A stretch of DNA of 64,000 bases from an uncultured virus (IMG/VR IMGVR_UViG_3300042368_000845) (lineage: Duplodnaviria > Heunggongvirae > Uroviricota > Caudoviricetes), in the IMG/VR virus record IMGVR_UViG_3300042368_000845; one strand, given 5' to 3'. Positions 2,019 to 40,723 of this stretch are shown here, one piece after another. The translations under genes were made by a program, and so were the position numbers. A model generated the notes under the pieces. It ran no database searches. It worked only from the letters and a program-made list of their open reading frames with translations, and was not told the origin of the DNA. Each line of letters begins with the position of its first letter. The stretch's first letter is position 1.

Positions 2019-2113
2019 GAACATAAATATATGTTATCAATTATTACTTATATTTAAATAAAAATATTTTATATATTGACATCTGTTAATAAAATATGAT
2101 AGAGAATTTTAAA

Positions 2114-3067
2114 ATGAAAAAAATTGTATATGTTACAGGTTGTTTAGGCTTTATTGGTTCATATATAACTCGTTTATGTTTACAGCGAGGATGGTATGTA
2201 AAAGGTGTTGATAAAATAACATATGCTGCAAATAAAGATTTATTAAATGAATTTACAAAATATGAAAACTTTTCATTTGTACATTGTGATATAAATGATC
2301 TTAAATTTTTATATGACTGTGATTATGTAATTAATACAGCAGCAGAAACACATGTTGGAAATTCTATAGCAAATAGTGATGATTTTATTAAATCAAATAT
2401 AGACGGTGTACATAATTTATTAGAATTGATAAGAAATTATAGGCAAGAAACTGGAAAAATACCAACCTTGTTTCATTTTAGCACTGATGAAGTTTATGGA
2501 GATATTGAAGAAGGTGCTCACACAGAAACAGATTTACTTAAGCCATCCAATCCATATTCAGCGACTAAAGCAGCAGCAGATATGCTAATATTAGCCTGGG
2601 CTAGAACGTATGGAATCCCATATGTTATTGTTAGACCAACAAATAATTATGGAATAGGTCAATATGTTGAAAAATTAATTCCAAAATCATGTAAATATCT
2701 TGCTTTGGGGAGAAAAATACCACTTCATAACAATGGAACACCTATAAGAAATTGGTTACATGCTGAAGATACAGCAAGAGCAGTTTTAAATATTATTGAT
2801 AAAGATGTTAAAAATGAAATATACAATATTTGTGGTGGATTTGAACAAAGTAATTTTGAAACAGTAAATCAAATTTTGAAATGTCATAATATTCCAGAAG
2901 AAAAATTACAAAATTATATTGATTTGTCTTTCAATCGAACTGGACAGGATGTAAGATATGCATTGAATGATTCTAAACTAAGATCATTAGGTTGGAATCC
3001 AATTAAAATTTTTGAAAAAGAATTAAAAGATATAGTAAAACACTATCAGGAAAAATTTATATGGTAA
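2114..3067 (+). CDS. rmlB: dTDP-glucose 4,6-dehydratase (RmlB-like)
   Basis: VTGCLGFIGS, DKITYA, AAETHV, STDEVYG, PSNPYSATKA, NNYG motifs; start taken at MKKIVYV. Confidence 0.88.
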   Translation: MKKIVYVTGCLGFIGSYITRLCLQRGWYVKGVDKITYAANKDLLNEFTKYENFSFVHCDINDLKFLYDCDYVINTAAETHVGNSIANSDDFIKSNIDGVHNLLELIRNYRQETGKIPTLFHFSTDEVYGDIEEGAHTETDLLKPSNPYSATKAAADMLILAWARTYGIPYVIVRPTNNYGIGQYVEKLIPKSCKYLALGRKIPLHNNGTPIRNWLHAEDTARAVLNIIDKDVKNEIYNICGGFEQSNFETVNQILKCHNIPEEKLQNYIDLSFNRTGQDVRYALNDSKLRSLGWNPIKIFEKELKDIVKHYQEKFIW

Positions 3068-4134: not shown

Positions 4135-4135
4135 T

Positions 4136-5872: not shown

Positions 5873-5873
5873 T

Positions 5874-6632
5874 ATGAAACTTTTTAAAAATACAAATTAT
5901 AATCGTTCACTGTATGACAATACTAAATCATTAACAGAAATTGCAAATTTGTTTGAAACAGATAAAGGTAATGCTGATTCAAAATCTTTATCATGGAGTA
6001 AAGATTATCCAGAGCACTTTTCTATGTCATATACTATAACCTATGAAAAGTATATGAATAATTATAGAGAAGATCATGTTAAATTATTTGAAATAGGAAT
6101 TTGTGATAAAAGATTTCCATACGCTTCACAAAAAATGTGGTTAACATTTTTTAAAAATGTAGAATTATATGGGATGGATAATTTTTGGGGTAATTATTTA
6201 GAAGATAAAACTAAAGATATAAATTTTTTAAATGAATTGGGTGTAAATTTTATATATGCTGATCAAGGAAATTTTTGCGATTGGAATGAAATAAAAGAAC
6301 AATGCCCAAATAATTTTGATTTTTTTATTGAAGATGGTAGTCATTGGCCAAATCATATGGCAGTAAGTTTGTGGCAAGCAAAAGATTTAGTAAAACAAAA
6401 TGGATATTATTTTATGGAAGATATTCAAAATCCAAAAACTAGTCGTGGGATGTTTAAATATGATAACGCATTATTGTGTGAAGATTTAATCAATACACAA
6501 AAAACTGGAATTTTTAAAAGCCATTTTTTAAATAATCAACAGAATTTAGATATTAATAAATCTTTTGAATTAGTTGAATTAGTGTTGGATCCAAAATCAA
6601 TAAATTATTTAGCAATATTTAGAAAGATATAA
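5874..6632 (+). CDS. Class I SAM-dependent (sugar O-)methyltransferase
   Basis: TDKG, LFEIG, DQ, IEDGSH, YFMED motifs. Confidence 0.7.
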   Translation: MKLFKNTNYNRSLYDNTKSLTEIANLFETDKGNADSKSLSWSKDYPEHFSMSYTITYEKYMNNYREDHVKLFEIGICDKRFPYASQKMWLTFFKNVELYGMDNFWGNYLEDKTKDINFLNELGVNFIYADQGNFCDWNEIKEQCPNNFDFFIEDGSHWPNHMAVSLWQAKDLVKQNGYYFMEDIQNPKTSRGMFKYDNALLCEDLINTQKTGIFKSHFLNNQQNLDINKSFELVELVLDPKSINYLAIFRKI

Positions 6633-6633
6633 A

Positions 6634-7311
6634 ATGATAAAAATTAAAACATTAGATGAATTAGCAAATTTTTATAAAACCGATAAAGGTACTATGTTTG
6701 AAACTCCATGTAAACATGGTTATGCACCAATATATGATGAATTATTAACGCCATTAAGAGATAAAGATATTTCTTTATTGGAAGTTGGTGTTTGGTTAGA
6801 AACTTCATCCATTGGTGGTGAATCTTTAAATATGTGGAAAGAATATTTTAAAAATGCAAATATATATGCATTTGATATTAGAGATATGAAAAATCATCCA
6901 TTTTTTGTAAATAACACTAATGTGTATTTTTACAATGGAGATCAGGGCAACCGAGACGATTTTGTATCTATGCATAATGCATTTAATAATGTATTTTTTG
7001 ATTTTATTCTTGAGGATGGATCACATAATGCAAATCATCAAATGATTTCATTTGCTAGTTTATTTAAATATGTTAAACCTGGGGGCATTTATATCTTAGA
7101 AGATATAACATTACCTGGTGTTGCCAACTGTAATGGAATGAATAATAATCCAACATGGTATACTTTGAATGGTTTTATTGAAAATAAACAAATAATATCT
7201 AATTATTTAACAGATGAAGAAACCTCCTATCTTACTGATAACATAGACAAAATAATAATACATAACGATATTAAGAATCAATGGGCTACGGCTATAATTT
7301 ATAAAAAATGA
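6634..7311 (+). CDS. Class I SAM-dependent (sugar O-)methyltransferase, paralog of upstream gene
   Basis: TDKG..HGY, LLEVGV, GDQ, EDGSH, VKPGGIYILED. Confidence 0.78.
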   Translation: MIKIKTLDELANFYKTDKGTMFETPCKHGYAPIYDELLTPLRDKDISLLEVGVWLETSSIGGESLNMWKEYFKNANIYAFDIRDMKNHPFFVNNTNVYFYNGDQGNRDDFVSMHNAFNNVFFDFILEDGSHNANHQMISFASLFKYVKPGGIYILEDITLPGVANCNGMNNNPTWYTLNGFIENKQIISNYLTDEETSYLTDNIDKIIIHNDIKNQWATAIIYKK

Positions 7312-8078
7312 ATATTTTAATAACAGGCGGTAATGGATACATCGCAAAAAAATTAAAGCAAAATTTAAATTATAATATACTCGCAGTCACTCGTCACGAT
7401 TTTGACCTTGAAGATACTACAGCTGTTCATAAGTGGTTTCGTGATAAAACATTTGATGTAGTAATACATACAGCAATATCTGGTGGGAGCAGATTAAAAT
7501 CTGATGATTCTAGCATTATAGAATCAAATTTAAAAATGTATTACAATTTATATAATGAAAGACATCAGTTTGGTAAACTTATATCTTTTGGTTCAGGTGC
7601 AGAAATATTTGCATCAAATACACCATATGGTGAAAGTAAAAAAAGAATTGCAGAATCAATTCAAAATACTAATAATTTTTACAATATTCGCATATTTAAT
7701 GTATTTGATGAGAATGAATTAGAAACTCGATTTGTAAAAGCAAATATCATAAGACATATTCGCAATCAACCAATGATAATATTTAACGATAAAATCATGG
7801 ATTTTTACTACATGAAAGATTTATTATCTTTAGTGGAATATTATCTAGTAAATAGTGATTTGCCAAAAGAATCAAATTGTAGTTACGAGATTAAGTTTAC
7901 ATTAAAGCAAATAGCAAATTTTATAAATTCACTAGACAATCACAAAGTTCCTGTTATAATTCAAAGCCAAAAACATTTAGAATTTTATTGTGATTCTGCA
8001 CATGATCTAAATATAAATGAAATAGGACTAAAACAGGGTATAATTAATACTTATAATATTCTAAAAAATAGAGGTTAA
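7308..8078 (+). CDS. NAD-dependent epimerase/dehydratase/reductase
   Basis: ILITGGNGYIA Rossmann motif; GSGAE; YGESK (YxxxK). Confidence 0.8.
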   Translation: MNILITGGNGYIAKKLKQNLNYNILAVTRHDFDLEDTTAVHKWFRDKTFDVVIHTAISGGSRLKSDDSSIIESNLKMYYNLYNERHQFGKLISFGSGAEIFASNTPYGESKKRIAESIQNTNNFYNIRIFNVFDENELETRFVKANIIRHIRNQPMIIFNDKIMDFYYMKDLLSLVEYYLVNSDLPKESNCSYEIKFTLKQIANFINSLDNHKVPVIIQSQKHLEFYCDSAHDLNINEIGLKQGIINTYNILKNRG

Positions 8079-8079
8079 T

Positions 8080-9426
8080 ATGATTGATGTGAATTTATCT
8101 GGTGATGAAATTGATCGTAAAATAAAAGAACTTGTTCAATTAAAAAGAAAACAAACAAAAAAATGGATTCGAGGAAAAGATACAATTCAATATGCTGGCA
8201 ATTACTTTGATGATGAAGAATTTATTGCTGGTATAGATTGTTTTCTTGATGGTTGGTTGGTTCTTGGAGATCATGGTCTTCGTTTCGAAAGACAATTCAA
8301 AGAAAAACTTGGAAAACAACACGGTGCATTAGTAAATAGTGGATCAAGTGCTAATCTTTTAATGATTACTGCATTAAAATCTAAAAGACTTTATAATTTT
8401 GGTCCAGGGACAAAGATAATTACTCCTGCCGCTGGTTTTCCAACAACAATTAATCCAATTATCCAAAATGGTTTTCAACCAGTTTTTGTTGATATTGAAG
8501 TAGATACTTTAAATCTAAATTTAGATCAAGTTGAACAAGCAGCAAAAAATGGTGCTAAAGTTCTTGCATTTGCACATGTACTTGGTAATCCACCTAATAT
8601 GGATAAGTTAATGGAGATTGTTGATAAGTATAATCTTATTCTTCTTGAAGATTGTTGTGATGCTCTTGGTAGTAAATATGATGGTAAATTACTAGGATCT
8701 TTCGGTCAATTTGCATCATGTTCGTTTTATCCTGCACATCATATTACAATGGGAGAAGGAGGATTTGTTGCATCTAAAACTGATGAACAAGATACAGTAA
8801 TTAAAAGTCTTCGTGAATGGGGAAGAGGTTGTTATTGTTCTGGTAAGGGTGCTTCTTGTCTTCGAAATGGAATGTGTAAGAAGAGATTCAGTGAATGGTT
8901 GCCAAGTTTTCCTGGAGTAATATTTGATCACAAATATGTCTATGAAGAGATTGGTTATAATCTAAAACCAATTGAAATGCAAGCGGCAATAGGATTAGTT
9001 CAACTTAAGAAGTTAGATAAGATTATTGAACTTCGAAAGAAAAATTTTAATCGTCTATACCAAATTTTTTCAAAATATGATAAGATTTTTCATCTACCAA
9101 AAGCAACTGAAAAATCAGATCCTTCTTGGTTTGCTTTCCCATTAACAGTTAAAGATGGAGTATATCTTAAACGAAATGAATTTACTATGTATCTTGAAGA
9201 CAATAAGATACAGACTAGAAATTATTTTGGTGGAAATGTTCTTCTTCAACCAGCATATGAAGGAATTTATTCTGGTAATGCAAAGAAAGATTTTCCAGTC
9301 GCAACAAAAGTTACTACTGACACATTTTTTTTAGGGACTAGTCCAGTCATAACAGACGAACAACTAGATTATATTGAAGATGTAGTTACAACTTATTTTA
9401 ATAATTCTACAAATTATAGCGTATAA
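8080..9426 (+). CDS. rfbH: CDP-4-keto-6-deoxy-glucose 3-dehydratase (RfbH/DdhC, E1)
   Basis: NSGSSAN, EDCCDALG, FYPAHHITMGEGG (His at the aminotransferase Lys position), WGRGCYC Cys cluster, DHKYVY..IGYNLK. Confidence 0.88.
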   Translation: MIDVNLSGDEIDRKIKELVQLKRKQTKKWIRGKDTIQYAGNYFDDEEFIAGIDCFLDGWLVLGDHGLRFERQFKEKLGKQHGALVNSGSSANLLMITALKSKRLYNFGPGTKIITPAAGFPTTINPIIQNGFQPVFVDIEVDTLNLNLDQVEQAAKNGAKVLAFAHVLGNPPNMDKLMEIVDKYNLILLEDCCDALGSKYDGKLLGSFGQFASCSFYPAHHITMGEGGFVASKTDEQDTVIKSLREWGRGCYCSGKGASCLRNGMCKKRFSEWLPSFPGVIFDHKYVYEEIGYNLKPIEMQAAIGLVQLKKLDKIIELRKKNFNRLYQIFSKYDKIFHLPKATEKSDPSWFAFPLTVKDGVYLKRNEFTMYLEDNKIQTRNYFGGNVLLQPAYEGIYSGNAKKDFPVATKVTTDTFFLGTSPVITDEQLDYIEDVVTTYFNNSTNYSV

Positions 9427-9429
9427 ATA
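9422..9429 (+). promoter_or_regulatory. T4-type late promoter
   Basis: Exact TATAAATA just upstream of the 9448 gene. Confidence 0.7.
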
Positions 9430-9447
9430 AGATAAAGGATCTTAATT

Positions 9448-10656
9448 ATGCATCGACTTTCTTTGTCAATGATTGTAAAAAATGAATCACATGTGATTCT
9501 AGAGTGTCTTAATTCAGTATATAAACTTATAGATTATTGGGTAATAGTTGATACAGGATCAACAGATGGAACCCAAGATATTATCAAAAACTTCTTTCAA
9601 GAGAAAGGCATTCCTGGAGAATTACATGAAAAGGAATGGAAAGGTTTTGGTAAATCAAGAACAGAAGCATTAGATCTTTGTAAGGGTAAAGCAGAATATG
9701 CTTATATGATCGATGCAGATGATTATCTACATGGTGAATTCAAATTACCACCAGGAAATAAAGTTGATTCATATGCTCTTCGTCTAGGAAGAGAAGAATT
9801 TTCTTGGTGGAGAAATCAAATATTCAAAGTAGATGCTGAATGGGAATACGTTGGTGTTCTTCATGAATACGCTCGTTCTAGAGCAAAAGAACAACCAATC
9901 ATAGCAAAGCTTGAAGGTAATTATAGGGTAGTCGCTCGCACTGTTGGTGCAAGAAATGTTGGCATTACACCTGTTGAAAAATATACAAAAGATGCCGAGA
10001 CATTAGAGAAGGCTCTTATAGATGAACCAGATAATATTCGATATATGTTTTATCTGGGTCAATCATATTTTGATTCACAACAGTGGGAAAAAGCAATTGA
10101 TGCTTATATGAGAAGAGCCGAAAAGGGTGGATGGGGTGAAGAAGTATATTATTCTTTATATCGAATTGCAGTAGCCAAGGCCATGTTAAATCGTCCATGG
10201 GGTGAAATCATGGAATCATTTTTGCTTGCCTACAATTCAAGACCAATTCGAGCAGAGCCACTATATCATATTGCTCAAATCTATCGTACAAAGTTTAACA
10301 TGCCTGCAATCGCCTATATGTTCGCAAAGGCAGCATCAGATATTCCATTTCCAGAAGGAGATATCTTATTCGTACCTGATATGATGTACAATTATGCAAT
10401 ATTAGATGAATTGGCTGCTACAGCACATGCAGCAGGACAATTTCAATTAGGATATGATGTTTGCCGTAGACTATTACTTGAAAATAAGATTCCAAAATCA
10501 GAGATTCCACGAATTCAAGGTAATTTGGAACAATATGCACATATATTGGAACAGATGAAGAAACAACAGGCTGCTTTTCAACAACAGATGAAACAAATGG
10601 AGCCTGATCCAGAACCAGAAAAAAAGAAACAAATAAAATACAAAGAACGTAAATAA
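9448..10656 (+). CDS. GT2 glycosyltransferase with TPR repeats (protein glycosyltransferase-like)
   Basis: LSMIVKNE, DTGSTDGT, IDADD, GVLHE, followed by TPR-like helices (RYMFYLGQSYFD...). Confidence 0.85.
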   Translation: MHRLSLSMIVKNESHVILECLNSVYKLIDYWVIVDTGSTDGTQDIIKNFFQEKGIPGELHEKEWKGFGKSRTEALDLCKGKAEYAYMIDADDYLHGEFKLPPGNKVDSYALRLGREEFSWWRNQIFKVDAEWEYVGVLHEYARSRAKEQPIIAKLEGNYRVVARTVGARNVGITPVEKYTKDAETLEKALIDEPDNIRYMFYLGQSYFDSQQWEKAIDAYMRRAEKGGWGEEVYYSLYRIAVAKAMLNRPWGEIMESFLLAYNSRPIRAEPLYHIAQIYRTKFNMPAIAYMFAKAASDIPFPEGDILFVPDMMYNYAILDELAATAHAAGQFQLGYDVCRRLLLENKIPKSEIPRIQGNLEQYAHILEQMKKQQAAFQQQMKQMEPDPEPEKKKQIKYKERK

Positions 10657-29196: not shown

Positions 29197-29224
29197 TTGA
29201 CAAGTTAATTATTTGTGATATAAT
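29197..29224 (+). promoter_or_regulatory. Sigma70-like early promoter
   Basis: TTGACA-16 nt-TATAAT with TG extended -10. Confidence 0.75.
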
Positions 29225-29761: not shown

Positions 29762-30158
29762 AGAACTATTTAAAATCCATGAACAAATATGCAATGAAGC
29801 ATTAGAACTCATGAAAAAGAAAAACCATGACTATGCTGGTAAATCTGGAAATGATCCATTTGCCAACTTTACTAGAGCAGAAGCCATGGGAATCACAACG
29901 ACTGAAAAGGGAATGCTTGTCCGAATGCTCGACAAGATGAGTCGTTTATCTTCTTTTATGGATGCAAAAGAATTCAAAGTTGAAAATGAAAAATTAGAAG
30001 ATACGATTAAGGATATGATAAATTACTCTATTCTTTTATATGCATACATGCAAGATAAGAATGAGTCACCACCATATACTGACATTGATTATATTGATAT
30101 AGAGTGGAATAATAAGGGTGGAATTGTTCCTGATTCAGAAGATCCGAAGGTAGTATGA
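29751..30158 (+). CDS. Nucleotide-modification-associated (DUF1599/Nmad1-like) protein
   Basis: KKNHDYA..PFANF, LVRM.DK.SRL, EDT..D.INY. Confidence 0.7.
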   Translation: MRSEELFKIHEQICNEALELMKKKNHDYAGKSGNDPFANFTRAEAMGITTTEKGMLVRMLDKMSRLSSFMDAKEFKVENEKLEDTIKDMINYSILLYAYMQDKNESPPYTDIDYIDIEWNNKGGIVPDSEDPKVV

Positions 30159-31639
30159 GCTTTTATACAAATGTTTATTATACAGGATCTTCGATTCTGT
30201 TACGTCAAATCACAGATAAAAAAACAGAAAAGGCGAGAGTAAACTTCTCGCCATCTCTATTTTTGATTTCATCAAAAAATAGTAATTTTAAGACTGTAGA
30301 CGGAAGATATGCAGATGAAATTACTTTTACAAATGTTCATGAAATGAACGATTTTAAGAAAACATATGAAAATGTTGATAATTTTGAAATTCATGGAGAT
30401 ATTGACGCAAAGTATCAATATATTTCAAAGGAATTTGGAACTGAGTGTGATTATAATTTCAATGATATCGGTGTGATGTATATCGATATGGAAACGACAT
30501 GTGAAAATGGATTTCCATCTATTGAAAATCCAGAAGAAAAAATTATAGCAATCACGTGTAGTTTTAAGGGAAAGACATATGTTTATTGTCTTGGTGATTT
30601 TACTAGAGATGATGCAAATATTATCATCAATGAATATCACGATGAACAACAACTGTTGAGAGAATTTATTCATTTCATGCAAGATAAGCAACCAGAAATC
30701 ATAACTGGATGGAATGTTAGATTTTTCGATATTCCATATCTTGTAAATAGATGCAAAAAAATTCTTGATGAAAAAGAAGTCAAGAATCTTTCTCCATGGG
30801 GAATAATTAAAGATAGCATAGTCAACAGTCGTGGCGAAGATAAGGTCGTCTATGATATTGTTGGAATTTCTATTCTGGATTACTATGAACTTTATCGAAC
30901 ATTCACTTATGTAAATCAAGAATCATATAAACTTGATCATATTGCTTATGTTGAATTGGGTGAACGAAAGATTTCATATTCTGAATATGAAAATATGAGT
31001 GACTTTTATAAGAAGAATTTTCAGAAGTTTATTGAGTATAATATCAAAGACGTTGAACTTGTTGAACGTCTTGAAGAAAAGCTTCGTCTTATTGAACTAG
31101 CTGTTGCATTGGCATATTCTGCTGGTGTAAATTATAATGATGTATTTTCTCAAGTCAGAACATGGGATGTTATCATTTATAATTATCTCAAGAAGAACGG
31201 CATCATTATTCCACCAAAAAAGAATAATGTAAAAGATGAACAATATGCAGGAGCATATGTAAAAGAGCCATTGGTAGGAATGCACGATTGGGTAGTCTCA
31301 TATGACGTTAATTCCCTATATCCTTCTCTAATAATTCATTTTAATATTTCTCCAGAAACTTTACAAAACAAGAATTTCAAAGGAAAAATTAATATTCAAG
31401 ATATCTTGAATAAGAACAAAAATTCAGAAACATTCAAATGCTTTGATGAGGCAAAGAAAGTAAATTGTTCTATTGCGGCAAATGGAACACTTTATACAAA
31501 TAAAAAACGTGGGTTTCTTCCAGAACTCATGGATAAGATGTATAAAGAACGCAAACAATTCAAAGATAAGATGATTGAAGCCAAGAAAGATCTAGAAGCA
31601 ATTAATAACGAATTGAAGAAAAGGGGCTTGCAAGTCTAA
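30155..31639 (+). CDS. Family B DNA polymerase, N-terminal subunit (gp43A: exonuclease, palm motif A, first finger helix)
   Basis: DMET (ExoI), GWNVRFFDIPY (ExoII), YNIKD (ExoIII), YAGAYVKEP, DVNSLYPS (motif A); stops before motif B. Confidence 0.92.
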   Translation: MSFYTNVYYTGSSILLRQITDKKTEKARVNFSPSLFLISSKNSNFKTVDGRYADEITFTNVHEMNDFKKTYENVDNFEIHGDIDAKYQYISKEFGTECDYNFNDIGVMYIDMETTCENGFPSIENPEEKIIAITCSFKGKTYVYCLGDFTRDDANIIINEYHDEQQLLREFIHFMQDKQPEIITGWNVRFFDIPYLVNRCKKILDEKEVKNLSPWGIIKDSIVNSRGEDKVVYDIVGISILDYYELYRTFTYVNQESYKLDHIAYVELGERKISYSEYENMSDFYKKNFQKFIEYNIKDVELVERLEEKLRLIELAVALAYSAGVNYNDVFSQVRTWDVIIYNYLKKNGIIIPPKKNNVKDEQYAGAYVKEPLVGMHDWVVSYDVNSLYPSLIIHFNISPETLQNKNFKGKINIQDILNKNKNSETFKCFDEAKKVNCSIAANGTLYTNKKRGFLPELMDKMYKERKQFKDKMIEAKKDLEAINNELKKRGLQV

Positions 31640-31655
31640 ATAATCAGGATATAAT
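31628..31655 (+). promoter_or_regulatory. Sigma70-like promoter at start of intervening island
   Basis: TTGCAA-16 nt-TATAAT overlapping the last codons of gp43A. Confidence 0.55.
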
Positions 31656-31661
31656 ACTCAC

Positions 31662-32198
31662 ATGAACGTGATTGATTACTATAAGAATTGGGAAGTAAAC
31701 GCGATCATTGGTGATCTTGATACAAAGCGAAAGAACTTTACTGTACTTTGCAGCAATGTTGAGAATGATTTTAATATTGCAACAGCGATTCGTAATTCAA
31801 ATGCATTTTTGGCAAATGAGGTATGGATCTATGGAAAGAAGCAATATGATCGTCGTGGTACTGTAGGTACTCATAACTATACTCACTTCAAGCATGTTAA
31901 GACTATTTGTGATGTAATTGAAGAAGTTAAGGCTCTTGAGAAGCGAGTAGGAAGTGTTAGGATTATTGGTATCGATAATGTTCAGAATGCCATGCCAATC
32001 AATCATTATGCATGGCCAAAGCATGAACACATTCTCATGATTTTTGGCCAGGAAAAGGATGGAATTCCAAAACTTCTGCTTGACATGTGTGACGATATCC
32101 TGTATATTAAGCAGTATGGAAGTGTGAGAAGTTTGAATGTAGGAACAGCAAGTGGTATTGCAATGTATTCTTATTGTGAATACCTTGAGCGAGATTGA
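31662..32198 (+). CDS. TrmH/SpoU-family RNA 2'-O-methyltransferase
   Basis: NIATAIRN, FGQEKDGI, YI.QYGSVRSLNVGTASGI SPOUT motifs. Confidence 0.88.
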   Translation: MNVIDYYKNWEVNAIIGDLDTKRKNFTVLCSNVENDFNIATAIRNSNAFLANEVWIYGKKQYDRRGTVGTHNYTHFKHVKTICDVIEEVKALEKRVGSVRIIGIDNVQNAMPINHYAWPKHEHILMIFGQEKDGIPKLLLDMCDDILYIKQYGSVRSLNVGTASGIAMYSYCEYLERD

Positions 32199-32206
32199 GA
32201 TAATTG

Positions 32207-32290
32207 GGGATTGTGGCGGAATTGGTATACGCAACAGACTTAAAATCTGTCGGTCAATAGACCTTGTGGGTTCGAGTCCCACTAATCCCA
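32207..32290 (+). tRNA. tRNA-Leu (anticodon TAA)
   Basis: Acceptor GGGATTG/TAATCCC+A; anticodon arm ACAGA-CTTAAAA-TCTGT; long variable arm; GTGGG-TTCGAGT-CCCAC; CCA not encoded. Confidence 0.92.
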
Positions 32291-32304
32291 TTAGAAAGTG
32301 AAAA

Positions 32305-33057
32305 ATGAAGCAAACACTTTTTATATCAGACCTTCACATAGCATCTAACAAATGTAAAGCAAAACTCTTATCTGAATTTATTAAAAAGGATGAGAGTTCT
32401 TGTCTTTATTTGGTGGGTGATATCATTGATATTTGGCGTTTCAATCAGGCATTCAAGATGGATATTGAAACTCAGACCCATCATGTAGATTGTATTCGTC
32501 GCTTACTCAAGAAATCAAAACACGGAGAAGTCCATTATATTTGGGGAAACCACGATGAGTTTATGCATCGTTTTTCTGAGTCAAAATCTTTCGGTGGAGT
32601 TCATCTGCACGAAAGATGTGACTATACAGCATCTGATGGAAGAAGATACCTAGTTCTTCACGGTCATCAGTTTGACTTGGTATGTAAATACAAAATCGGA
32701 ACATTCTTATCTAAGATCGGTGATTTTGGATATGAATGGTTAATTGACATCAATGAATGGTATAACTGGGTACGTAAAAAGATGGGTCTTCAATATTCTT
32801 CACTTTCCAAGTATGTGAAGGTGAAGTTTAAGAAGGCAACAATGTTCATTGGAAACTTTGAAAAGCATCTTTCAGAATACGCAGAGAAGCATGGATATGA
32901 TGGAGTAATTTGCGGTCATATTCACGAACCAGCCGATAAGATGATCGGTAAGATTCATTATCTCAACTGCGGTTGTTGGACTGATGAAGCAAATCTCAAC
33001 TATCTGATTGACAAAGGTGATGGAAGTGGTATAATTCTATGCAGACACGAAAAATGA
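32305..33057 (+). CDS. Metallophosphoesterase, UDP-2,3-diacylglucosamine hydrolase (LpxH-like) family
   Basis: SDLH, GDIID, GNHD, HGH, CGHIH, NCG.W motifs. Confidence 0.85.
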   Translation: MKQTLFISDLHIASNKCKAKLLSEFIKKDESSCLYLVGDIIDIWRFNQAFKMDIETQTHHVDCIRRLLKKSKHGEVHYIWGNHDEFMHRFSESKSFGGVHLHERCDYTASDGRRYLVLHGHQFDLVCKYKIGTFLSKIGDFGYEWLIDINEWYNWVRKKMGLQYSSLSKYVKVKFKKATMFIGNFEKHLSEYAEKHGYDGVICGHIHEPADKMIGKIHYLNCGCWTDEANLNYLIDKGDGSGIILCRHEK

Positions 33058-33191
33058 AATACTTTTTTGAAGACTATGTTCTTTATCCTCTAGTATACAT
33101 TGGATTGTGTATTGGAGCATTAGCAGCAAGTTTATGTTTTTTACTGTGGGATACTTTAGTTTTTGTATTTAGTCTTGGAAAAAAGAAATGA
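33054..33191 (+). CDS. Small membrane peptide (45 aa)
   Basis: ATGA overlaps at both ends; hydrophobic; TTGACA-16-TATAAT at 33008-33035 upstream. Confidence 0.45.
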   Translation: MKYFFEDYVLYPLVYIGLCIGALAASLCFLLWDTLVFVFSLGKKK

Positions 33192-33367
33192 AAAAAGAAG
33201 AACTCATTGAAAACATTGAAATCCTCGCAGATAAATGTGAGGAGTTGATTAAGGAACGTGATCAAGCAAGACGACTTGTTTGTAAATATACAAAGAAAAC
33301 TTATCACACGCTCAAGGAAACCGCAGAACTACGAGGATGGGACTGCTACAAGGAGAACACACAATGA
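33188..33367 (+). CDS. Small hypothetical protein (59 aa, ERDQARR...RGWDCYKE)
   Basis: ATGA-coupled on both sides; below ORF-track cutoff. Confidence 0.55.
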   Translation: MKKEELIENIEILADKCEELIKERDQARRLVCKYTKKTYHTLKETAELRGWDCYKENTQ

Positions 33368-33990
33368 AGACACTAATCGCAACAGCATTTATCGCAACGG
33401 CAGCACACGGAACTGGGACTCTCTGCACCTTTGAGAATCTTCCTGCTCCAACAACTCCTAGTATGAGTTCCGCTACCACGGGATTCTATTGGGATTACCT
33501 CTCCTCATACGAGGGATTCCACTTCACAAGTTCATCTTCCCAAGGCAACTTCCAATGGGCATACTACGATCTCGTTGGTGGTGGGGGATACGCAGGATAC
33601 GATGAGGGAATCATCGGGGATCGTGCTTTGTTCACCCCGTGGGGTTCTGAGCAGAACAAGAACTACCGCATTCGTCGTGATGATCTTTGGATTCTCAACA
33701 GCATTGAAGTCACATCGGTTTGGAATTCGACCGCAGTAGTTATAGAGGGATACCGATACGGGGAGGGTGTGTTTACCTATACTACACAACTCACAGCAGC
33801 ACAGCGGGTAAAACTAAACATCTCCTCTGGATATCCTGGTCCGCTTAACAACATCACAGAGATCAAAATCTACACCAACACATTTAGTTCCCATCTCGCT
33901 ATCGATAATCTCAACTACACGGTGGTTCCTGCACCATCGGCACTTGCCCTGCTTGCGATTGCTGGTGCGGTTGGAAGGCGGCGACGATGA
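33364..33990 (+). CDS. PEP-CTERM-like surface-sorted protein
   Basis: AAGGAG RBS; signal peptide MKTLIATAFIATAAHG; C-terminal VPAPSALALLAIAGAVGRRRR. Confidence 0.85.
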   Translation: MKTLIATAFIATAAHGTGTLCTFENLPAPTTPSMSSATTGFYWDYLSSYEGFHFTSSSSQGNFQWAYYDLVGGGGYAGYDEGIIGDRALFTPWGSEQNKNYRIRRDDLWILNSIEVTSVWNSTAVVIEGYRYGEGVFTYTTQLTAAQRVKLNISSGYPGPLNNITEIKIYTNTFSSHLAIDNLNYTVVPAPSALALLAIAGAVGRRRR

Positions 33991-34160
33991 AAGATATTGC
34001 CTATGAACTTCGCGTTCTGACCAAAAGGCAAGATCTTCCACCCGATGTAATTCGTACAATTTCAGAGGCATATGCTGAGATTGTGGAACTTCGTAGTCAA
34101 GTAAGCAAATACGCTCTGGAAGCGATCACTCGCTTCGATGAAGAGAATGGACTATTATAA
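33987..34160 (+). CDS. Small hypothetical protein (57 aa)
   Basis: ATGA-coupled ORF MKDIAYELR...EENGLL*. Confidence 0.5.
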   Translation: MKDIAYELRVLTKRQDLPPDVIRTISEAYAEIVELRSQVSKYALEAITRFDEENGLL

Positions 34161-34181
34161 ATAATCATAGATGTTTAATCT

Positions 34182-34427
34182 ATGAAAAAAGATCTAAAGC
34201 AAGCAAAAAAGAATTGCGAATATATTGCAAAGATCAAAACAGAACGAGGCTGTTCTAAATGTGGTTATAATTTACACCCAGCCGCGTTAGAATTCCATCA
34301 TCTACAAGACAAAAAGCATAATATCTCCCGTATAGCACGTTCAGGAGTACCAGCAAATATTCTTGAAGAAGAAATTAAAAAATGCGTGGTTGTCTGTGCT
34401 AATTGTCATAGAATAGAACATTCATGA
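34182..34427 (+). CDS. Small HNH endonuclease
   Basis: CSKCG..ALEFHH..C.VVCANCHR.EH; TATAAATA at 34156-34163. Confidence 0.8.
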   Translation: MKKDLKQAKKNCEYIAKIKTERGCSKCGYNLHPAALEFHHLQDKKHNISRIARSGVPANILEEEIKKCVVVCANCHRIEHS

Positions 34428-34435
34428 GGTATCAT

Positions 34436-34708
34436 ATGGCAGACATTACAGATTACGAAAATACAAATCCTGAAAATATAAATGAGGCTTTTGAAAATCT
34501 TTCTGGTGATGTAAATTATATGCTGCATAAAATGAAAGAATTCAATAAAGAAGTTGTTGAATTGCTTGGTGACATGAAAGAATTAAAAGATTTTGTAGAT
34601 GTTGACATGAAGAATATTGATAAGTATAATATTGCTCGTAAGGCTTACATTGATCTTTATTATAAGTTTGATGATCTTCGTAACTATTACGACAATAGTA
34701 GAAATTAA
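34436..34708 (+). CDS. Hypothetical acidic helical protein
   Basis: GAGGT RBS before ATG (MADITD). Confidence 0.5.
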   Translation: MADITDYENTNPENINEAFENLSGDVNYMLHKMKEFNKEVVELLGDMKELKDFVDVDMKNIDKYNIARKAYIDLYYKFDDLRNYYDNSRN

Positions 34709-34709
34709 G

Positions 34710-34791
34710 GGATGATTACCCAAGCAGCAACGGGGGGAGACTGTAAATCTCCTGTCTTTAGACTTCGTAGGTGCAAGTCCTTCATCATCCA
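34710..34791 (+). tRNA. tRNA-Tyr (anticodon GTA)
   Basis: Acceptor GGATGAT/ATCATCC+A; GGAGA-CTGTAAA-TCTCC; long variable arm; atypical T loop TGCAAGT. Confidence 0.85.
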
Positions 34792-34806
34792 CTGATATTA
34801 GAATCG

Positions 34807-34870
34807 TACTCTATGATATAATGGGATTATCTCCGATTGGAGTATGTGGGTTCGAATCCCACTAGAGTAT
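34807..34870 (+). ncRNA. tRNA-like RNA lacking a normal anticodon loop
   Basis: TACTCTA/TAGAGTA acceptor; GATA-TAATGGGAT-TATC D arm; short (C)TCC-GATT-GGA(G) hairpin; GTGGG-TTCGAAT-CCCAC T arm. Confidence 0.7.
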
Positions 34871-34874
34871 TTAA

Positions 34875-35087
34875 ATGAAGAGAACTAAATCAACTACATT
34901 GAAGATCGGTGATCAGGTTTATCTCAATGATGAAGATGATTCTGGTCTATACGAGATCACACGAATAAATATTGAGCATGATGATTGCTGGTTGTTTGGT
35001 AGAGATATCGGTGAAGATAAACGTGATATCGAACAACAATTACCATTATCGTGGGTAGAAAGAATGTATAAAGATCAAAATCCATGA
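34875..35087 (+). CDS. Hypothetical protein (SH3-like small barrel possible)
   Basis: LKIGDQVY start; ORF in operon. Confidence 0.5.
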   Translation: MKRTKSTTLKIGDQVYLNDEDDSGLYEITRINIEHDDCWLFGRDIGEDKRDIEQQLPLSWVERMYKDQNP

Positions 35088-35263
35088 AAGATTCAAGAAT
35101 TCATTCGGCGGGAAAAGGCGATTCACGAAGACCAGTAGATTATAAAAAATGGTCAGAGAACTGGGATCGTATATTTGGGAAAAAGAAAAAGAAAAAGGTA
35201 AAGAAAAATGATGAGACTAAACACTCTATTGATTGGGATTCCGTAACAAATGGAGCCGATTGA
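35084..35263 (+). CDS. Small basic protein (GKGD.RRP..W.ENWDRIF type)
   Basis: ATGA-coupled 59-aa ORF not in track. Confidence 0.55.
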   Translation: MKDSRIHSAGKGDSRRPVDYKKWSENWDRIFGKKKKKKVKKNDETKHSIDWDSVTNGAD

Positions 35264-35675
35264 TTTTGATGATGCCAAGAATAGAGTTTTTGACAAATAT
35301 GGAAAATGTATGGAACTATTAGCACAACAAGAGCGTCTTGAGAAGCAATATAAGAATATTAAAATTCCATATCTTGAATTAAATGGAATTGGTTGGATTC
35401 CTATTATTGAAACTCTTCTACATGAAGCAGACGTATGGAATGAGAAGTGCAATATTGAAGATAAAATCGTGATTGACCAGATCAAAGAAAAATATGGATC
35501 ACTCAGATTCTATTTTCATGGTGGCAGTACAATGTTTCGTGGAATGGTAAGATTTGCGGAACAGATCAGTAAAAATACTTGTGAAGCTTGTGGATGTGTC
35601 AGTAAAAATCAATTTGATTGTACACGATGTAATATTAATTCTGTGAATGGTTGGGGTAAGGGAAAAGATGAATAA
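35250..35675 (+). CDS. Conserved phage hypothetical protein (QIKEKYG.LRFY...TCE.CG)
   Basis: GW..II, QIKEKYGSLRFY and C-terminal CxxC..CxxC. Confidence 0.65.
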   Translation: MEPIDFDDAKNRVFDKYGKCMELLAQQERLEKQYKNIKIPYLELNGIGWIPIIETLLHEADVWNEKCNIEDKIVIDQIKEKYGSLRFYFHGGSTMFRGMVRFAEQISKNTCEACGCVSKNQFDCTRCNINSVNGWGKGKDE

Positions 35676-35726
35676 ATAAGAATGTTAATTTTGATCTAAT
35701 GACGACCTACCAGCAATGGTGGGTGG

Positions 35727-36137
35727 TTAGTATATTTGTGATCTGATTATATTATTTCTTTCATTTGCTTTTCTTATAATAGGATGGTTGGGATCTACTC
35801 TTCCTGTAAGATGATTTAAATGATTATCAATTATTTTTGTAGACATATCATGTAATGATCTTTTTAATTCCTCATCTGAAGAATTTATAGATGCATCGTG
35901 AAGAAGATATGCTGCTTTAGCTAAATGTGTATCAGTATTACGAAGTTTATTTTTATGTGTATCCCAAAATAACATACTAGATTCTGATTCTGGATCACCA
36001 TCACCATGGGGTCCAATTGCCATAGAATTCAACCTTATACCATGAGATTTAATCATATTATGAATATTTTCTACTTCATTTTCTTCATATAATGATCTGT
36101 ATATTTGTTTTTTCAAACGATTTTTAAATGATTCCAT
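35727..36137 (-). CDS. Hypothetical protein, possible capsid-internal protein
   Basis: N-terminus MESFK...LYEE; hairpin ACCTACCA-GCAA-TGGTGGGT downstream. Confidence 0.55.
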   Translation of the reverse strand: MESFKNRLKKQIYRSLYEENEVENIHNMIKSHGIRLNSMAIGPHGDGDPESESSMLFWDTHKNKLRNTDTHLAKAAYLLHDASINSSDEELKRSLHDMSTKIIDNHLNHLTGRVDPNHPIIRKANERNNIIRSQIY

Positions 36138-36162
36138 ATTATTATATATTATAAATATTAGT

Positions 36163-37182
36163 ATGAATTGGATTCACTCTGTATCAAAATCGTATTTAAC
36201 AGAAGTCTTAAATATTAAGAAACCCAAAGTTTTATTTATTGGTAAGACCAGTATGATAAACGATATCTGGAAAATTAAACCAAACGATTTAGCACAATTG
36301 AAACAACTTTCTGATATTGATGTCATAACATTAGATTCAATGACAGAGGAGAAATTGGCAGAGAAGTGTGAAGGATATGATTATTTGATGTTAAATATGG
36401 ATTTTCTTCCATTTCCCGATCCAAATAAGATGGATAAATTGACAGAGAAGTTCTACAACCATCCTGGTATCAAAAATCTCAAAGGTATCAATGTTGATAT
36501 GACCGATGGTGATTTTTTTAGTCCACACTTAGCAAGACAAAAAGGAATATTTCTCCAGACTAGTCCAAATGCGGTGACACGAAGTGTTGCTGAATCTGCT
36601 TTGTGTGAAATTATGCTTCATGCCAAGCAAAGACATAATTCTTATGCGAATGATGAAAATTGCAATAAAACCCTGAATCTGCATGGAAAGATCGCAGGGA
36701 TCATAGGCCAGGGTCATATAGGTTCGGCACTTGGAGAGATGTTGTCTGGAATAGGAATGAAAGTATTGTTCAATGATATAAAATCATCTCAGTCAGAGAA
36801 TACTTCACTTGAAAAAATATTCAGTCAGGCTGATGTCATTAGCATTCATATTCCTGCTCTTTTACCAAGAACCACCAATAACAATATAGGATTTATTGAT
36901 TCTAAATTATTAAACCTATGTAAAGGTACAATATTAGTCAATCTTGCAACTGATATTATTGTGGATTCTGATTCAATAATATCGGCACTAAATACTGGAA
37001 AGATCGTTGGTTATTCGGTAGAACCTGGAAGAAAAGTTACAGAAAAACTAAGAAAATACAAGCAAGTTCATATTTCTCCATGCTCCTTTGATTCTGATGA
37101 GTCTAGAGCAAATGTAAAGAGAATATGGATTCAAAATATGATAACAGCAATTCAAGGATATCCACAAAACATATGGAACTGA
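36163..37182 (+). CDS. D-isomer-specific 2-hydroxyacid dehydrogenase family protein
   Basis: PNAVTRSVAE, L.GK.AGIIGQGHIG, ADVISIHIP, ILVNLA; TATAAATA at 36150-36157. Confidence 0.8.
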   Translation: MNWIHSVSKSYLTEVLNIKKPKVLFIGKTSMINDIWKIKPNDLAQLKQLSDIDVITLDSMTEEKLAEKCEGYDYLMLNMDFLPFPDPNKMDKLTEKFYNHPGIKNLKGINVDMTDGDFFSPHLARQKGIFLQTSPNAVTRSVAESALCEIMLHAKQRHNSYANDENCNKTLNLHGKIAGIIGQGHIGSALGEMLSGIGMKVLFNDIKSSQSENTSLEKIFSQADVISIHIPALLPRTTNNNIGFIDSKLLNLCKGTILVNLATDIIVDSDSIISALNTGKIVGYSVEPGRKVTEKLRKYKQVHISPCSFDSDESRANVKRIWIQNMITAIQGYPQNIWN

Positions 37183-37270
37183 TAATATTCACATTATTCT
37201 TTTTACCACTTGCTCTTAGTTTCTGGGTTGGAACTTTAGTTGGACGAATACTTGAATTAAAGAAAAAGAT

Positions 37271-37762
37271 ATGAAAACATTTAAGCAATTTATCAAAGAG
37301 CAAGAAGAACTGGAAGAAAATAAACTTGCAAAAACAATGCTAGGATTAGCAATAATCGGTGGGCTTCAAGCAGGAGCCATGAGACACGATCCTGTGCCAA
37401 ATAGTTCACAAACATCAAAGACCGTTGAAAAATCTGGTGACGAAACAAGAACATCGGAACTGATAAGAACTGGTGCGATGAAAGCAGGAGAAAATGCAAG
37501 ACACATACACCGCGGATTCTTCGATACAAAGGACAGAGAAGTGGTCGATACTCTTGTGCGTGATGTTCCCAGCACATCTAAGTTTAAAGTAACAAAAACA
37601 GGACCAGATGGGACAGCAGTTGCTTCTAGAACAATGATCGGAAATAGAACAGTCAATAGAACTGGAAGTATTGACAATACGAATTTAAAGATTCCAACCG
37701 ATGATGTGACTGTTTCTGGCAAAAAGGATAGTTTCAAAAACATCGTTTGGAAAAAGAAATAA
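37271..37762 (+). CDS. Probable capsid-internal protein with hydrophobic segment
   Basis: MKTFKQFIKEQEELEE leader resembling the T4 internal-protein targeting sequence. Confidence 0.55.
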   Translation: MKTFKQFIKEQEELEENKLAKTMLGLAIIGGLQAGAMRHDPVPNSSQTSKTVEKSGDETRTSELIRTGAMKAGENARHIHRGFFDTKDREVVDTLVRDVPSTSKFKVTKTGPDGTAVASRTMIGNRTVNRTGSIDNTNLKIPTDDVTVSGKKDSFKNIVWKKK

Positions 37763-37936
37763 ATGAAATCACCCGATAGGTCTTGGGATTTAGATGAATT
37801 CATAGGTCTTGTGGTCTTAGGGGGACCAACCGCAGTATATTGTTATTGGATTGGTCATGCAATATTTCAAATTATAAATATATTAGTAAACCTTATATAA
37901 GATGTGTTAAGTATAACTGAATATAAGGAACCATAA

Positions 37937-38278
37937 ATGCAGGGACAAAGCAATAATACTGATAATTTTTTAGGAATTGGTATAGATCTTGGTCTTATGA
38001 TGGCAGGATTTTTTGGTGCGTTAATTTTAGCATTAACAGCAAAAAATCAGACTCCTGGAAGGGCAATAACTTCTATATTTGCTGGAGCATTATGCGCCAA
38101 CTATTTGACACCAATTGCTCTTCATTTCATGCCAGAATCCATACAGAATAATGGTAAATACGGTGCTGCATTTATAATGGGATTTATTGGGTTGAAAACA
38201 TTAGAATTAGTCTATGATTTTGTATCCAAGAAATTAAAGACAAAAAATGGTAAGATAAATATTGACATTAGTATGTAA
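37937..38278 (+). CDS. Holin-like membrane protein
   Basis: Three hydrophobic helices, basic C-terminus; TATAAATA at 37873-37880. Confidence 0.55.
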   Translation: MQGQSNNTDNFLGIGIDLGLMMAGFFGALILALTAKNQTPGRAITSIFAGALCANYLTPIALHFMPESIQNNGKYGAAFIMGFIGLKTLELVYDFVSKKLKTKNGKINIDISM

Positions 38279-38313
38279 TAATACTAAAATTTAAATTATA
38301 AGGAATATTTAAT

Positions 38314-39357
38314 ATGAGTAAAGTGGCACTGATTACTGGAATTTGTGGACAGGATGGATCATATCTAAGTCAATTATTGATATCCAAGGGATATGAGGTT
38401 CATGGTATTATTCGAAGATCTTCTTCTTTTAATACTGGAAGAATCGATCATCTTATAAATGATCCAGAAATTTATAATAAAAAATTATTTTTACATTTTG
38501 GTGATTTGACAGACTTCAATAGTCTTCAAAAAATTATAACAAAATATTCTCCAGATGAAATTTATAATCTTGGTGCTCAAAGCCATGTTAAAGTTTCATT
38601 CGATATGCCAGTATTTACTGGAGAGACAACTGGAATCGGAACATTAAATCTTTTAGAAGCCATACGAACATTTGAAGAACAAACTGGTAAAAAGATTCGA
38701 TATTATCAGGCCAGCAGTTCGGAGATGTATGGTAAGGTTCAAGAAGTTCCTCAAAAAGAAACAACACCGTTTTATCCTCGTTCACCGTATGGATGTGCAA
38801 AAGCTTATGCACATTATCTCACTGTGAATTATCGTGAAAGTTATGATCTACATGCTTCATGTGGAATTTTGTTTAACCACGAAAGTCCGCGTAGAGGAGA
38901 AACATTCGTAACAAGAAAAATCACAAGAGCAGTTGGTAGAATTTATCAAGGATTACAAAAGAAACTATATCTTGGTAATTTAGATGCATATCGTGATTGG
39001 GGATTTGCTGGAGATTATGTTGAAGCCATGTGGCTGATGCTACAGCAAGATAAACCAGATGATTATGTTGTTGCAACTGGTAAGATGATTACCGTAAGAG
39101 AATTCTGTCAAAAAGCTTTTGCAAGATATAGTATGAATTATTTGGATTATGTTGAAGTTGATGAAAAATATTATCGTCCAGCAGAAGTAGATCAATTATT
39201 GGGAGATTCAACTAAAGCTAAAAGTAAATTAGCTTGGACACCAAAGGTTAATATCAATGAATTGATTGACATGATGACAGATCATGATTTTGAACTTGCC
39301 AGAAAAGAACGAATCATAGAAATATATGATAAAAAATTAAATCCAACTGGCCCATGA
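38314..39357 (+). CDS. gmd: GDP-mannose 4,6-dehydratase
   Basis: [68 protein letters not shown]-17-TAAAAT promoter at 38262-38290. Confidence 0.95.
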
Positions 39358-39371
39358 TTTTAATAAAATAA

Positions 39372-39399
39372 TTGACACCACAATTAATTCTGATATAAT
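39372..39399 (+). promoter_or_regulatory. Sigma70-like early promoter for gp43B-UvsX-helicase operon
   Basis: TTGACA-16 nt-TATAAT with TG extended -10; same layout as 29197. Confidence 0.75.
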
Positions 39400-39405
39400 G
39401 CAGAC

Positions 39406-39633
39406 ATGAAATATGGTCTGCATTTTACCAATACCTCGAAAGAAGAAGATTGGCTCAGGGAATCAGATAAGTCTATATGTATTTGGAATAGTGCTGATGA
39501 AGCAGATGATTGGCGTAAGAAACATACAGTAAATCCTAAGATTTATGATGTTAAAAAAGTAACGCCAAAAATAATTAAAGAAGATCAAGAAAAATATGGA
39601 AGTAACAATGAACGATCTTTCAAAATTGAGTGA
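39406..39633 (+). CDS. Hypothetical protein
   Basis: First ORF after the promoter; overlaps gp43B start. Confidence 0.55.
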   Translation: MKYGLHFTNTSKEEDWLRESDKSICIWNSADEADDWRKKHTVNPKIYDVKKVTPKIIKEDQEKYGSNNERSFKIE

Positions 39634-40723
39634 TAATGAATTGTTATCATTGAAGCATAAAACAGAATTAGATATTTCAAAGTATCATAATTTTCAGTTA
39701 GTCCGTAAAATTCAATTGAATTCAGCTTACGGTGCTATTGGTAATGCGTATTTTAGATTCTATAATACTGATTTGGCCGAGGCAATCACATTGTCAGGCC
39801 AATTGTCTATTCAATGGATTGGAAATAGATTAAATGAATTAATTAATAAAGTAACTAATTCAGATAATAAGGATTTTATCATTGCATCAGACACAGATTC
39901 AATTTATCTTAAAATTGATGATGTCGTAAATCAATATGCATCTAATAAATCAATTATAGAAAAAATTGATTATATTGATTCATCATCTAAAAATATCATT
40001 TTGCCATATATTGAAAAGCAGTTCGACAGTCTAGCAAATATGATGAATGCATTTGAAAATAGAATTGTTATGGCAAGAGAAGTTATTGCAGACAAGGGTG
40101 TATGGACTGCAAAAAAGAGATATATGTTAAATGTCTGGGATTCAGAAGGCGTTCGTTATAGTCAACCTAAACAAAAAATCATGGGAATTGAAACTTCACG
40201 ATCATCTACTCCAGAGGTTGTTCGTAAAGAATTAAAGAATGCCATCAGCATTATTCTCAACAAAGATGAAAATGAATTGATTGACTTTGTTGCAAAATTC
40301 AAATCTAAATTCATGAAAATGAGTGTAGAGGAAATTTCTTTTCCACGTAGTGTAAATGGACTTGATAAGTATAGAGATTCTTCTCAAATTTATAAATTGA
40401 AGACTCCTATTCAGGTAAAGGCTGCTTTGTTGTATAATCATTACATCAAGGAAATGAAATTGAGTATGAAATATACTAAAATTTCAGAAGGTGAAAAGAT
40501 TAAATTTGTATATCTTAAAAAGCCCAATCCATTGGCAGGAACACAGGGAGAAGATTGTGTAATTGGATTCCCGAATAAAATGCCAAAAGAGTTTGATCTT
40601 GACAAATTTATTGATCGTGAAAAACAATTTGAAAAAGCATTTCTTGATCCACTGATAAAGATTCTAGATATCATTGGATGGAAGGCAGAAAAAACAAACA
40701 CTCTAGAATCACTTTTTATATGA
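39596..40723 (+). CDS. Family B DNA polymerase, C-terminal subunit (gp43B: second finger helix, palm motifs B/C, thumb, clamp-binding tail)
   Basis: KIQLNSAYG (motif B), SDTDSIY (motif C), AKKRY, KIMGIE..RSSTP, C-terminal TLESLF; alternative start 39608. Confidence 0.92.
   Translation: MEVTMNDLSKLSDNELLSLKHKTELDISKYHNFQLVRKIQLNSAYGAIGNAYFRFYNTDLAEAITLSGQLSIQWIGNRLNELINKVTNSDNKDFIIASDTDSIYLKIDDVVNQYASNKSIIEKIDYIDSSSKNIILPYIEKQFDSLANMMNAFENRIVMAREVIADKGVWTAKKRYMLNVWDSEGVRYSQPKQKIMGIETSRSSTPEVVRKELKNAISIILNKDENELIDFVAKFKSKFMKMSVEEISFPRSVNGLDKYRDSSQIYKLKTPIQVKAALLYNHYIKEMKLSMKYTKISEGEKIKFVYLKKPNPLAGTQGEDCVIGFPNKMPKEFDLDKFIDREKQFEKAFLDPLIKILDIIGWKAEKTNTLESLFI

Follow-up and report, generated by a model that had tools for sequence, protein, structure and literature searches.

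How has the replicative DNA polymerase gene of a T4-like phage come to lie in two pieces about 8 kb apart, and can the two pieces still make one enzyme? This question is raised by a stretch of 64,000 nucleotides (nt), hereafter the window, which is the first 64 kb of the 76,280-nt virus record IMGVR_UViG_3300042368_000845 (an uncultured member of the Caudoviricetes; record estimated to be 45% complete) and in which gene 43 is present as two reading frames, gp43A and gp43B. We consider it probable, at about 0.7, that the window encodes an intact heterodimeric polymerase split at the fingertip, that this split is the nuclease-free footprint of a mobile cassette, and that the stop-containing insert found with the cassette in sister strains is hopped over by the ribosome. 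We hold with only slightly better than even confidence the wider proposal that a widespread GIY-YIG cassette repeatedly splits gp43 in freshwater and marine T4-like phages and carries a natural stop-hop of 4-11 nt with a long-range stem and a distant Shine-Dalgarno motif, which would be a second architecture for efficient bypassing. The parts of the split polymerase are as follows.

gp43A, 30155..31639, + strand: 494 amino acids (aa); N domain, 3'-5' exonuclease, motif A and first finger helix
gp43B, 39596..40723, + strand: 375 aa, uninterrupted; returning finger helix, motifs B and C, thumb and clamp-binding tail
gp43A C-terminal extension helix, 31592..31639, + strand: common to split relatives, absent from the fused relatives shown; in the predicted interface
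gp43B N-terminal extension helix, 39608..39667, + strand: homologous to the start that the cassette supplies in relatives

By alignment, gp43A matches residues 3-506 of RB69 gp43 and gp43B matches residues 524-897 of T4 gp43. Since one half ends at RB69 506 and the other starts at T4 524, the break lies at the fingertip, between the two finger helices, where a first-pass annotation made from the sequence alone had placed it. Exo I-III, motif A (DVNSLYPS), motif B (KIQLNSAYG), motif C (SDTDS) and the C-terminal LESLF were all found across the two halves. Translation of gp43B could also begin at a second ATG, at 39608. The ratio of nonsynonymous (dN) to synonymous (dS) change indicates purifying selection on both genes (dN 0.075 and dS 1.20 for gp43B against L058; dN 0.29 with saturated dS for gp43A against L004), and with both open reading frames (ORFs) at the positions first reported and every motif kept, the halves proved to be intact. 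No intron was detected by Rfam, which was run on the window only, and no intein by Pfam in gp43A or gp43B, in agreement with the first reading; a group I/II intron or a split intein at the break was rejected on these results and because the relatives' insert of 4-11 nt is too short for a ribozyme. The contiguity of the locus was also upheld: two other contig records (L002/L051 and L005/L054), which may share the source sample of the window, run from gp43A to gp43B gaplessly at 99.8-99.98% identity. Only two PF00136 matches occur in the 76-kb record, and no credible joint fusing gp43A to gp43B was found in four sequencing runs; a joint at 30229-34201 in X19 was dismissed as a link between the halves, one of its sides being only 20 nt long.

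To assess whether the halves could assemble, we modelled gp43A 341-494 together with gp43B 5-234. The complex scored 0.82 (best control 0.00), a mark reached by 116 of 157 solved complexes and by 2 of 215 mismatched pairs; at least 90% of contacts recurred between runs and the partner pLDDT (predicted local distance difference test) was at least 79, a pass that may reflect likeness to solved intact gp43. Both extension helices lie inside the predicted interface and show helical periodicity. The best-defined predicted contacts join the motif-A strand of gp43A to the palm of gp43B, so that the junction is not limited to the fingertip coil. Selection and the model thus lend good support to a gp43 that would work as two subunits, while the antiparallel coiled coil through which the halves had been proposed to reassemble makes up only part of the predicted interface. 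The split of the window's gp43 at the fingertip is confirmed. By itself such a split is ordinary and of a kind already known, and its occurrence in Aeromonas and Acinetobacter T4-like phages, given as known in the first-pass annotation, was confirmed from PMC3061061.

The cassette matters more than the split gene alone. It was recognised in strains nearly identical to the window (L001, L003 and L131; gp43A 99.6-100% identical where present, gp43B body 99.4%), in which it occupies the following place.

empty allele, 39649..39739, + strand: 91 nt that cassette-bearing strains exchange for 916 nt
Gly49 codon of gp43B, 39740..39742, + strand: predicted landing codon in cassette alleles

The 916-nt cassette consists of a GIY-YIG gene, a new gp43B start, a take-off codon and a stop. 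Its nuclease has 237 aa (GIY-YIG, SegE, PF19835, phrog_314), and in L131 the new gp43B start overlaps the nuclease ORF by 25 nt. The gp43B frame of the cassette ends at Gly46 followed by TAG, with a second Gly codon 5 nt on, in the downstream frame. Both alleles were found in lake DNA run X2 (~55x vs 8x, the cassette allele being the minor one), in which a contig crosses the insert without differences, and again in lake DNA run X3, where the joint 39648-39740 is present. In six sister pairs with and without the cassette (seven comparisons), DNA identity is 93.5-99.4% downstream and 64-72% over the 106-nt head. Near-identical cassette heads were found on bodies only 65-77% alike; L131 and L096, for example, have heads 99% alike on bodies 65% alike. 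A free-standing predicted homing endonuclease located at the split and mobile between strains is thus seen in relatives of the window. In L003 the cassette sits inside an already split gene, of which a 37-codon stub remains.

A search seeded with the nuclease, and so blind to the stop, covered the best 79 of 422 loci; 5 of these were dropped as not lying beside gp43, and 3 ended before motif B. All 15 nuclease-bearing alleles that lack an insert have altered motif-B residues, compared with 3 of 80 alleles without a nuclease, and the predicted cut site is therefore placed at motif B, with substitution and insertion as two probable routes to immunity. No cultured phage with the cassette was present among the top 25 nuclease matches, all below 40% identity. 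In L084 (~1611-2387) a different nuclease, Vsr/HNH-like, was observed where the cassette nuclease otherwise lies, together with the same insert and the same stem; nucleases at this position may be exchanged. Elsewhere in the gene, gp43 of L010 and L044-L049 is broken by ~0.7-0.9 kb just past motif A with the fingertip intact (perhaps through an intron, or as a second site of splitting), and further insertions of 0.8-1.2 kb occur in gp43A or gp43B of the cassette-bearing phages L218, L219, L213, L208 and L210.

We then considered the insert, the few extra bases in motif B that open with a stop. A pattern requiring the stop gave polymerase matches in 36/36 cases in viral contigs, 30/42 in metagenomes and 1/6 in genomes; the non-polymerase matches (12/42 and 5/6) were dropped, and the sole genuine genome match, L301, a 2.5-kb contig in a Melainabacteria bin, was not accepted as evidence of a host. 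In the whole survey, 127 loci had an insert, in 56 distinct alleles, and 137 loci were insert-free, in 96 alleles. An in-frame stop directly follows the take-off codon in all 56 insert alleles, including the 20 of 20 found by the nuclease and not by the stop pattern; among 53, it is TAG in 39, TGA in 8 and TAA in 6. The offsets, with numbers of alleles, are 4 (2), 5 (22), 6 (9), 7 (1), 8 (6), 9 (8), 10 (5) and 11 nt (3), so that all three frames are represented. In 52 of the 56 alleles the take-off codon begins with the same two bases as the landing codon (Gly 42, Leu 8, Ala 2), the take-off being shifted one codon upstream in the eight Leu alleles, and the two codons are identical or wobble-equivalent in 35 of 56. 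A stop stands immediately before the landing codon in 14 of 56. Downstream frames measure 315-340 codons in 45 of 46 complete cases, and between insert alleles their dN is far below dS.

The insert is accompanied by a predicted RNA stem of ~18 pairs, in which codons 13-19 of the cassette head are paired to motif-B codons and the 3' arm ends at the take-off codon. At least 13 of the 18 pairs can form in 55 of 56 insert alleles, compared with 3 of 96 others. In 33 alleles, 77 double-change cells were counted, a number reached in 0 of 500 shuffles (shuffle mean 29; slid controls 7-27); RNAalifold recovered the stem unaided, and the z score is -5.5 in L131 vs -1.6 in the window. The contrast in the stem between insert-bearing and insert-free sisters is independent of the double-change counts. 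Just 5' of the stem, a GGAG-type purine motif is present in 56/56 insert alleles vs 9/96 others, and the Glu codons at this motif are GAG in 55 of 73 cases vs 435 of 1243 downstream. In three metatranscriptome runs only 5-10% of the words were present, and one short contig crosses the insert. Taken together, the stop, the codon pairs, the stem and the GGAG motif suggest that gp43B of cassette strains is likely made by a programmed ribosomal stop-hop.

In the mechanism that we propose, the predicted nuclease would cut near the motif-B codons of empty alleles like that of the window, and repair would copy the cassette in. Entry into a fused gene would split gp43 and bring two extension helices that pack together, the C-terminal helix of gp43A being probably derived from the cassette, and the insert would shield the cassette from its own nuclease. 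On the mRNA, the ribosome would pause when its P site holds the take-off codon and its A site the stop; the ~18-bp stem would zip behind the ribosome and push it 4-11 nt forward, stem closure would place the GGAG motif near the anti-Shine-Dalgarno, and the peptidyl-tRNA would re-pair at the matching landing codon. Pairing of the exiting mRNA has been proposed as the driver of bypassing in T4 gene 60 (bioRxiv 2024.12.09.627546, available part). Later the nuclease would be lost, then the insert and then the stem, after which the halves would acquire their own promoters and the space between them would fill with genes, as in the window.

The relatives are consistent with this course. In a tree of 41 rows chosen from 146 sequences, split fingertips are interspersed with intact ones, and well-supported branches force at least 6 changes; the extension helices are confined to the split forms shown, the fused forms being without them. 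In two supported sister pairs (L189/L010 and L179/L036) the split member has a nuclease between abutting halves. Loss stages were recognised as an insert without a nuclease (L073, L077, L083, L090) and as a stem without an insert (L296, L254), and the window would fit the last stage, in which it would again be a cassette target. In the records of three relatives gp43B was not found, but gp43A lies near the contig end there, so that these are uninformative.

Several points weigh against our reading. The window itself has the empty allele and not the cassette, and an insert was found in only 1 of 81 loci seeded by gp43B. Distinct alleles were defined as differing within ~170 nt, and close kin are thus counted among the 56; relatedness can likewise inflate the double-change counts, and kin sequences could beat the shuffle without any structure. 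Part of the codon match follows from the design of the locus, since the ribosome would land on a codon that belongs to the resident gene (identical in 5 of 6 sister pairs). Moreover, the third bases are non-wobble in 17 of the 52 matched pairs and the first bases differ in 4 alleles, whereas in gene 60 homologs one tRNA can always read both codons (bioRxiv 10.1101/2022.08.31.505936, available part). A first-base mismatch of the landing codon, at offsets 4 and 8, was noted in L187, L191, L199 and L203. Finally, no near-identical pair of a fused and a split gene was found, the best sharing 83% amino-acid identity, and splitting de novo is therefore indicated indirectly; re-fusion could be another source of the interleaving.

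The same lack of a close fused/split pair bears on the most serious alternative, which we nevertheless regard as unlikely: that the split predates the nuclease and arose independently, for example through an untranslated insertion as in phage 44RR, with the cassette only invading split genes and carrying a copy of the gp43B start. Every near-identical sister pair compares split with split, the cassette of L003 did enter a gene that was already split, and PMC2988022 (available part) leaves the same question undecided for Aeromonas phage 25. The pattern may be due, in part or entirely, to invasion of split genes of the kind seen in L003. An older split is harder to reconcile with the six or more changes forced by the interleaving, with the nuclease between abutting halves in the split members of L189/L010 and L179/L036, and with the recurrence of the same extension helices across clades. 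As to how gp43B is made, a protein-catalysed, stem-guided micro-splice that removes the 4-11 nt insert from the mRNA, with no hop, would account for a covarying stem that stops at the 5' edge of the insert and would make the non-wobble and mismatched codon pairs irrelevant. It appears improbable to us, as the insert begins in every case with an in-frame stop, which may be any one of the three and for which splicing has no need, and the Shine-Dalgarno-like motif is under selection. An X19 RNA-library contig (L131 929-1145, gapless) also retains the insert, a weak point in that the contig ends 4 nt past the landing codon, has a depth of 4 and may be DNA.

Still less probable is that insert alleles yield no joined gp43B, either being dead or giving pieces, through re-initiation or read-through, that act as a three-part enzyme. 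The stop does interrupt a motif that is essential, and in run X2 the cassette allele is outnumbered by the empty one; yet the downstream frames are intact and under purifying selection, and read-through would be useless for the 39 alleles whose offset changes the frame. We rejected re-initiation downstream of the stop, there being no conserved start codon after it and a stop abutting the landing codon in 14 of 56 alleles. Mis-assembly or decayed copies as the source of the window's split are largely refuted and retain hardly any weight. With the record ~45% complete another polymerase gene is possible, but the two contig records that span the gap, the single pair of PF00136 matches, the purifying selection on both halves and the lack of a credible fusion joint in the four runs all argue otherwise, and a cultured cyanophage, ACG-2014f, has the same split. 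We therefore retain the reading of a heterodimer split by a cassette whose insert would be hopped over.

The halves are separated by 7,956 nt, a distance that is the same in other contigs. The gap and its putative promoters are described by the following features.

variable island, 31640..39595, no strand: 7,956 nt with ~19 ORFs, 2 tRNAs and two internal promoter sites (33008, 34602); contents are a SpoU methylase, tRNA-Leu, a metallophosphoesterase, a PEP-CTERM-like protein (weak), HNH (weak), tRNA-Tyr, a 2-hydroxyacid dehydrogenase, a holin-like protein, a GDP-mannose dehydratase and small ORFs
promoter site, 29197..29224, + strand: perfect sigma70-type match, consensus only; before a dUTPase gene, a DUF1599-like gene and gp43A
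promoter site, 39372..39399, + strand: consensus match only; before ORF 39406-39633 and gp43B; kept in L058 and L059

The content of the gap, to which about 20 genes and RNAs had first been attributed, varies even among strains. The gap is not the largest, since a relative, G001 (L228, G001:C1 15000-34999), has one of ~16.5 kb with 10 tRNA genes. In the 34 split loci that include both halves, motif B lies 0.3 to 16.7 kb beyond the end of gp43A, the distance in the window (8.08 kb) being the second largest, in a survey whose 10-kb flank limit conceals larger gaps. The large gap is a variable island and not the surprising part of the locus. Perfect TTGACA/TATAAT sites number four in the window (29197, 33008, 34602, 39372) against 0.19 expected by shuffling, and two of them (33008, 34602) lie inside the gap. 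The sites at 29197 and 39372, to which separate promotion of the halves had been ascribed, do exist, but neither stands directly before a polymerase half: the former lies upstream of gp43A at a distance of 958 nt, with two genes between, and the latter is followed by an ORF of 75 aa that overlaps gp43B. Separate transcription of gp43A and gp43B is suggested by these consensus matches; as the terminator scan is at chance level (6 vs 4.7), a long read-through transcript may also cross the region.

Some other observations were made in and around the gap. The SpoU-family RNA methylase gene (window 31662-32198) stands beside tRNA-Leu, and the gp43 gap holds SpoU in 23 of 25 loci, three pairs of which are the same contig. 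The protein encoded at 33364-33990 looks secreted and has a PEP-CTERM-like tail (weak NF038120 match, far below cut-off); this stretch appears more GC-rich, is present in the gaps of some relatives and is a possible host clue. At 34807-34869 there is a tRNA-like sequence with an acceptor-type stem, a T-arm and a shortened anticodon arm, which was missed by ARAGORN and Rfam and is nearly invariant across 11 loci of the phage population. Outside the gap, a cluster of sugar-nucleotide, methyltransferase and glycosyltransferase-like ORFs was recognised by eye from the translations at window 490-10656, and eight TTGACA..TA(C/G/A)AAT promoter-like sites occur amid small ORFs at G000 62786-75649, probably an early region.

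Finally, the locus was compared with known systems, the papers concerned being cited from the parts available. Fingertip-split gp43 has been described in five T4-like phages (Aeromonas 25, 31, 44RR and 65; Acinetobacter 133), with gaps of 2 bp to 3 kb (PMC3061061); for phage 25, PMC2988022 describes active halves that purify together and treats the origin of the split as uncertain, and a GIY-YIG-type gene, seg43(25), is associated with the split (PMC2988022, PMC3061061). The window shares with these phages the fingertip break and two intact halves, but its gap is 8 kb (~16.5 kb in the relative), which extends the known gap size from 3 kb to 8-16 kb, and in the available parts of these papers a stop-containing insert or hop in motif B is unmentioned. 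The insert alleles bear on whether gene 43 is split by the insertion of a nuclease, a question raised in PMC2988022. Synechococcus phage ACG-2014f (NC_047713.1) is likewise annotated with two gp43 genes and has the same extension helices, but its gap is ~0.5 kb with two small ORFs, and it is without nuclease or insert.

The closest parallel in organisation is T4 gene 39/mobA/gene 60, in which a free-standing nuclease also lies between the halves of an essential enzyme (bioRxiv 10.1101/2022.08.31.505936). Both cassettes have terminal extensions on the two halves, with the N-terminal one overlapping the nuclease ORF, a divergent homologous region, and a take-off codon, stop and matched landing codon (Gly46 both in L131 and in gene 60); both show a one-codon take-off shift in some clades, and end states in which nuclease and bypass are gone and the halves lie apart, the Campylobacter clade of the MobA paper resembling the window. 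Nevertheless, the gp43 cassette would work like a MobA element without being a member, differing in nuclease family (HNH MobA there, GIY-YIG SegE, PF19835, here), in target (a topoisomerase there, DNA polymerase motif B here), in the length between the matched codons (~50 nt there, 1-8 nt here) and in stimulator layout (a take-off hairpin with an in-gap mini-Shine-Dalgarno there, a ~100-nt long-range stem with an upstream GGAG here); gp43 inserts also have more non-wobble codon pairs. The word "polymerase" is absent from the text of the MobA paper, and a natural ribosomal hop in gp43 is not reported in the literature searched, which largely excluded subscription papers.

In form, the inserts resemble synthetic stop-hops and a candidate bypass in a Streptomyces phage terminase, which have matched codons around a stop and 9 nt giving one residue (PMC5009743); the +6 Leu-stop-Leu and Gly-stop-Gly alleles of gp43 share the form of the synthetic stop-hops. 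The gp43 inserts lie in an essential gene and have a conserved putative stimulator, and natural in-frame stop-hops were not known as of that 2016 review. In the literature consulted, T4 gene 60 is the only phage case in which efficient programmed bypassing has been demonstrated experimentally, and short natural counterparts have long been presumed. The survey offers 56 natural variants of a ~150-nt signal that could be used directly in a reporter, and, if our reading is true, a second efficient-bypassing architecture would stand beside that of gene 60, in an essential replicative enzyme.

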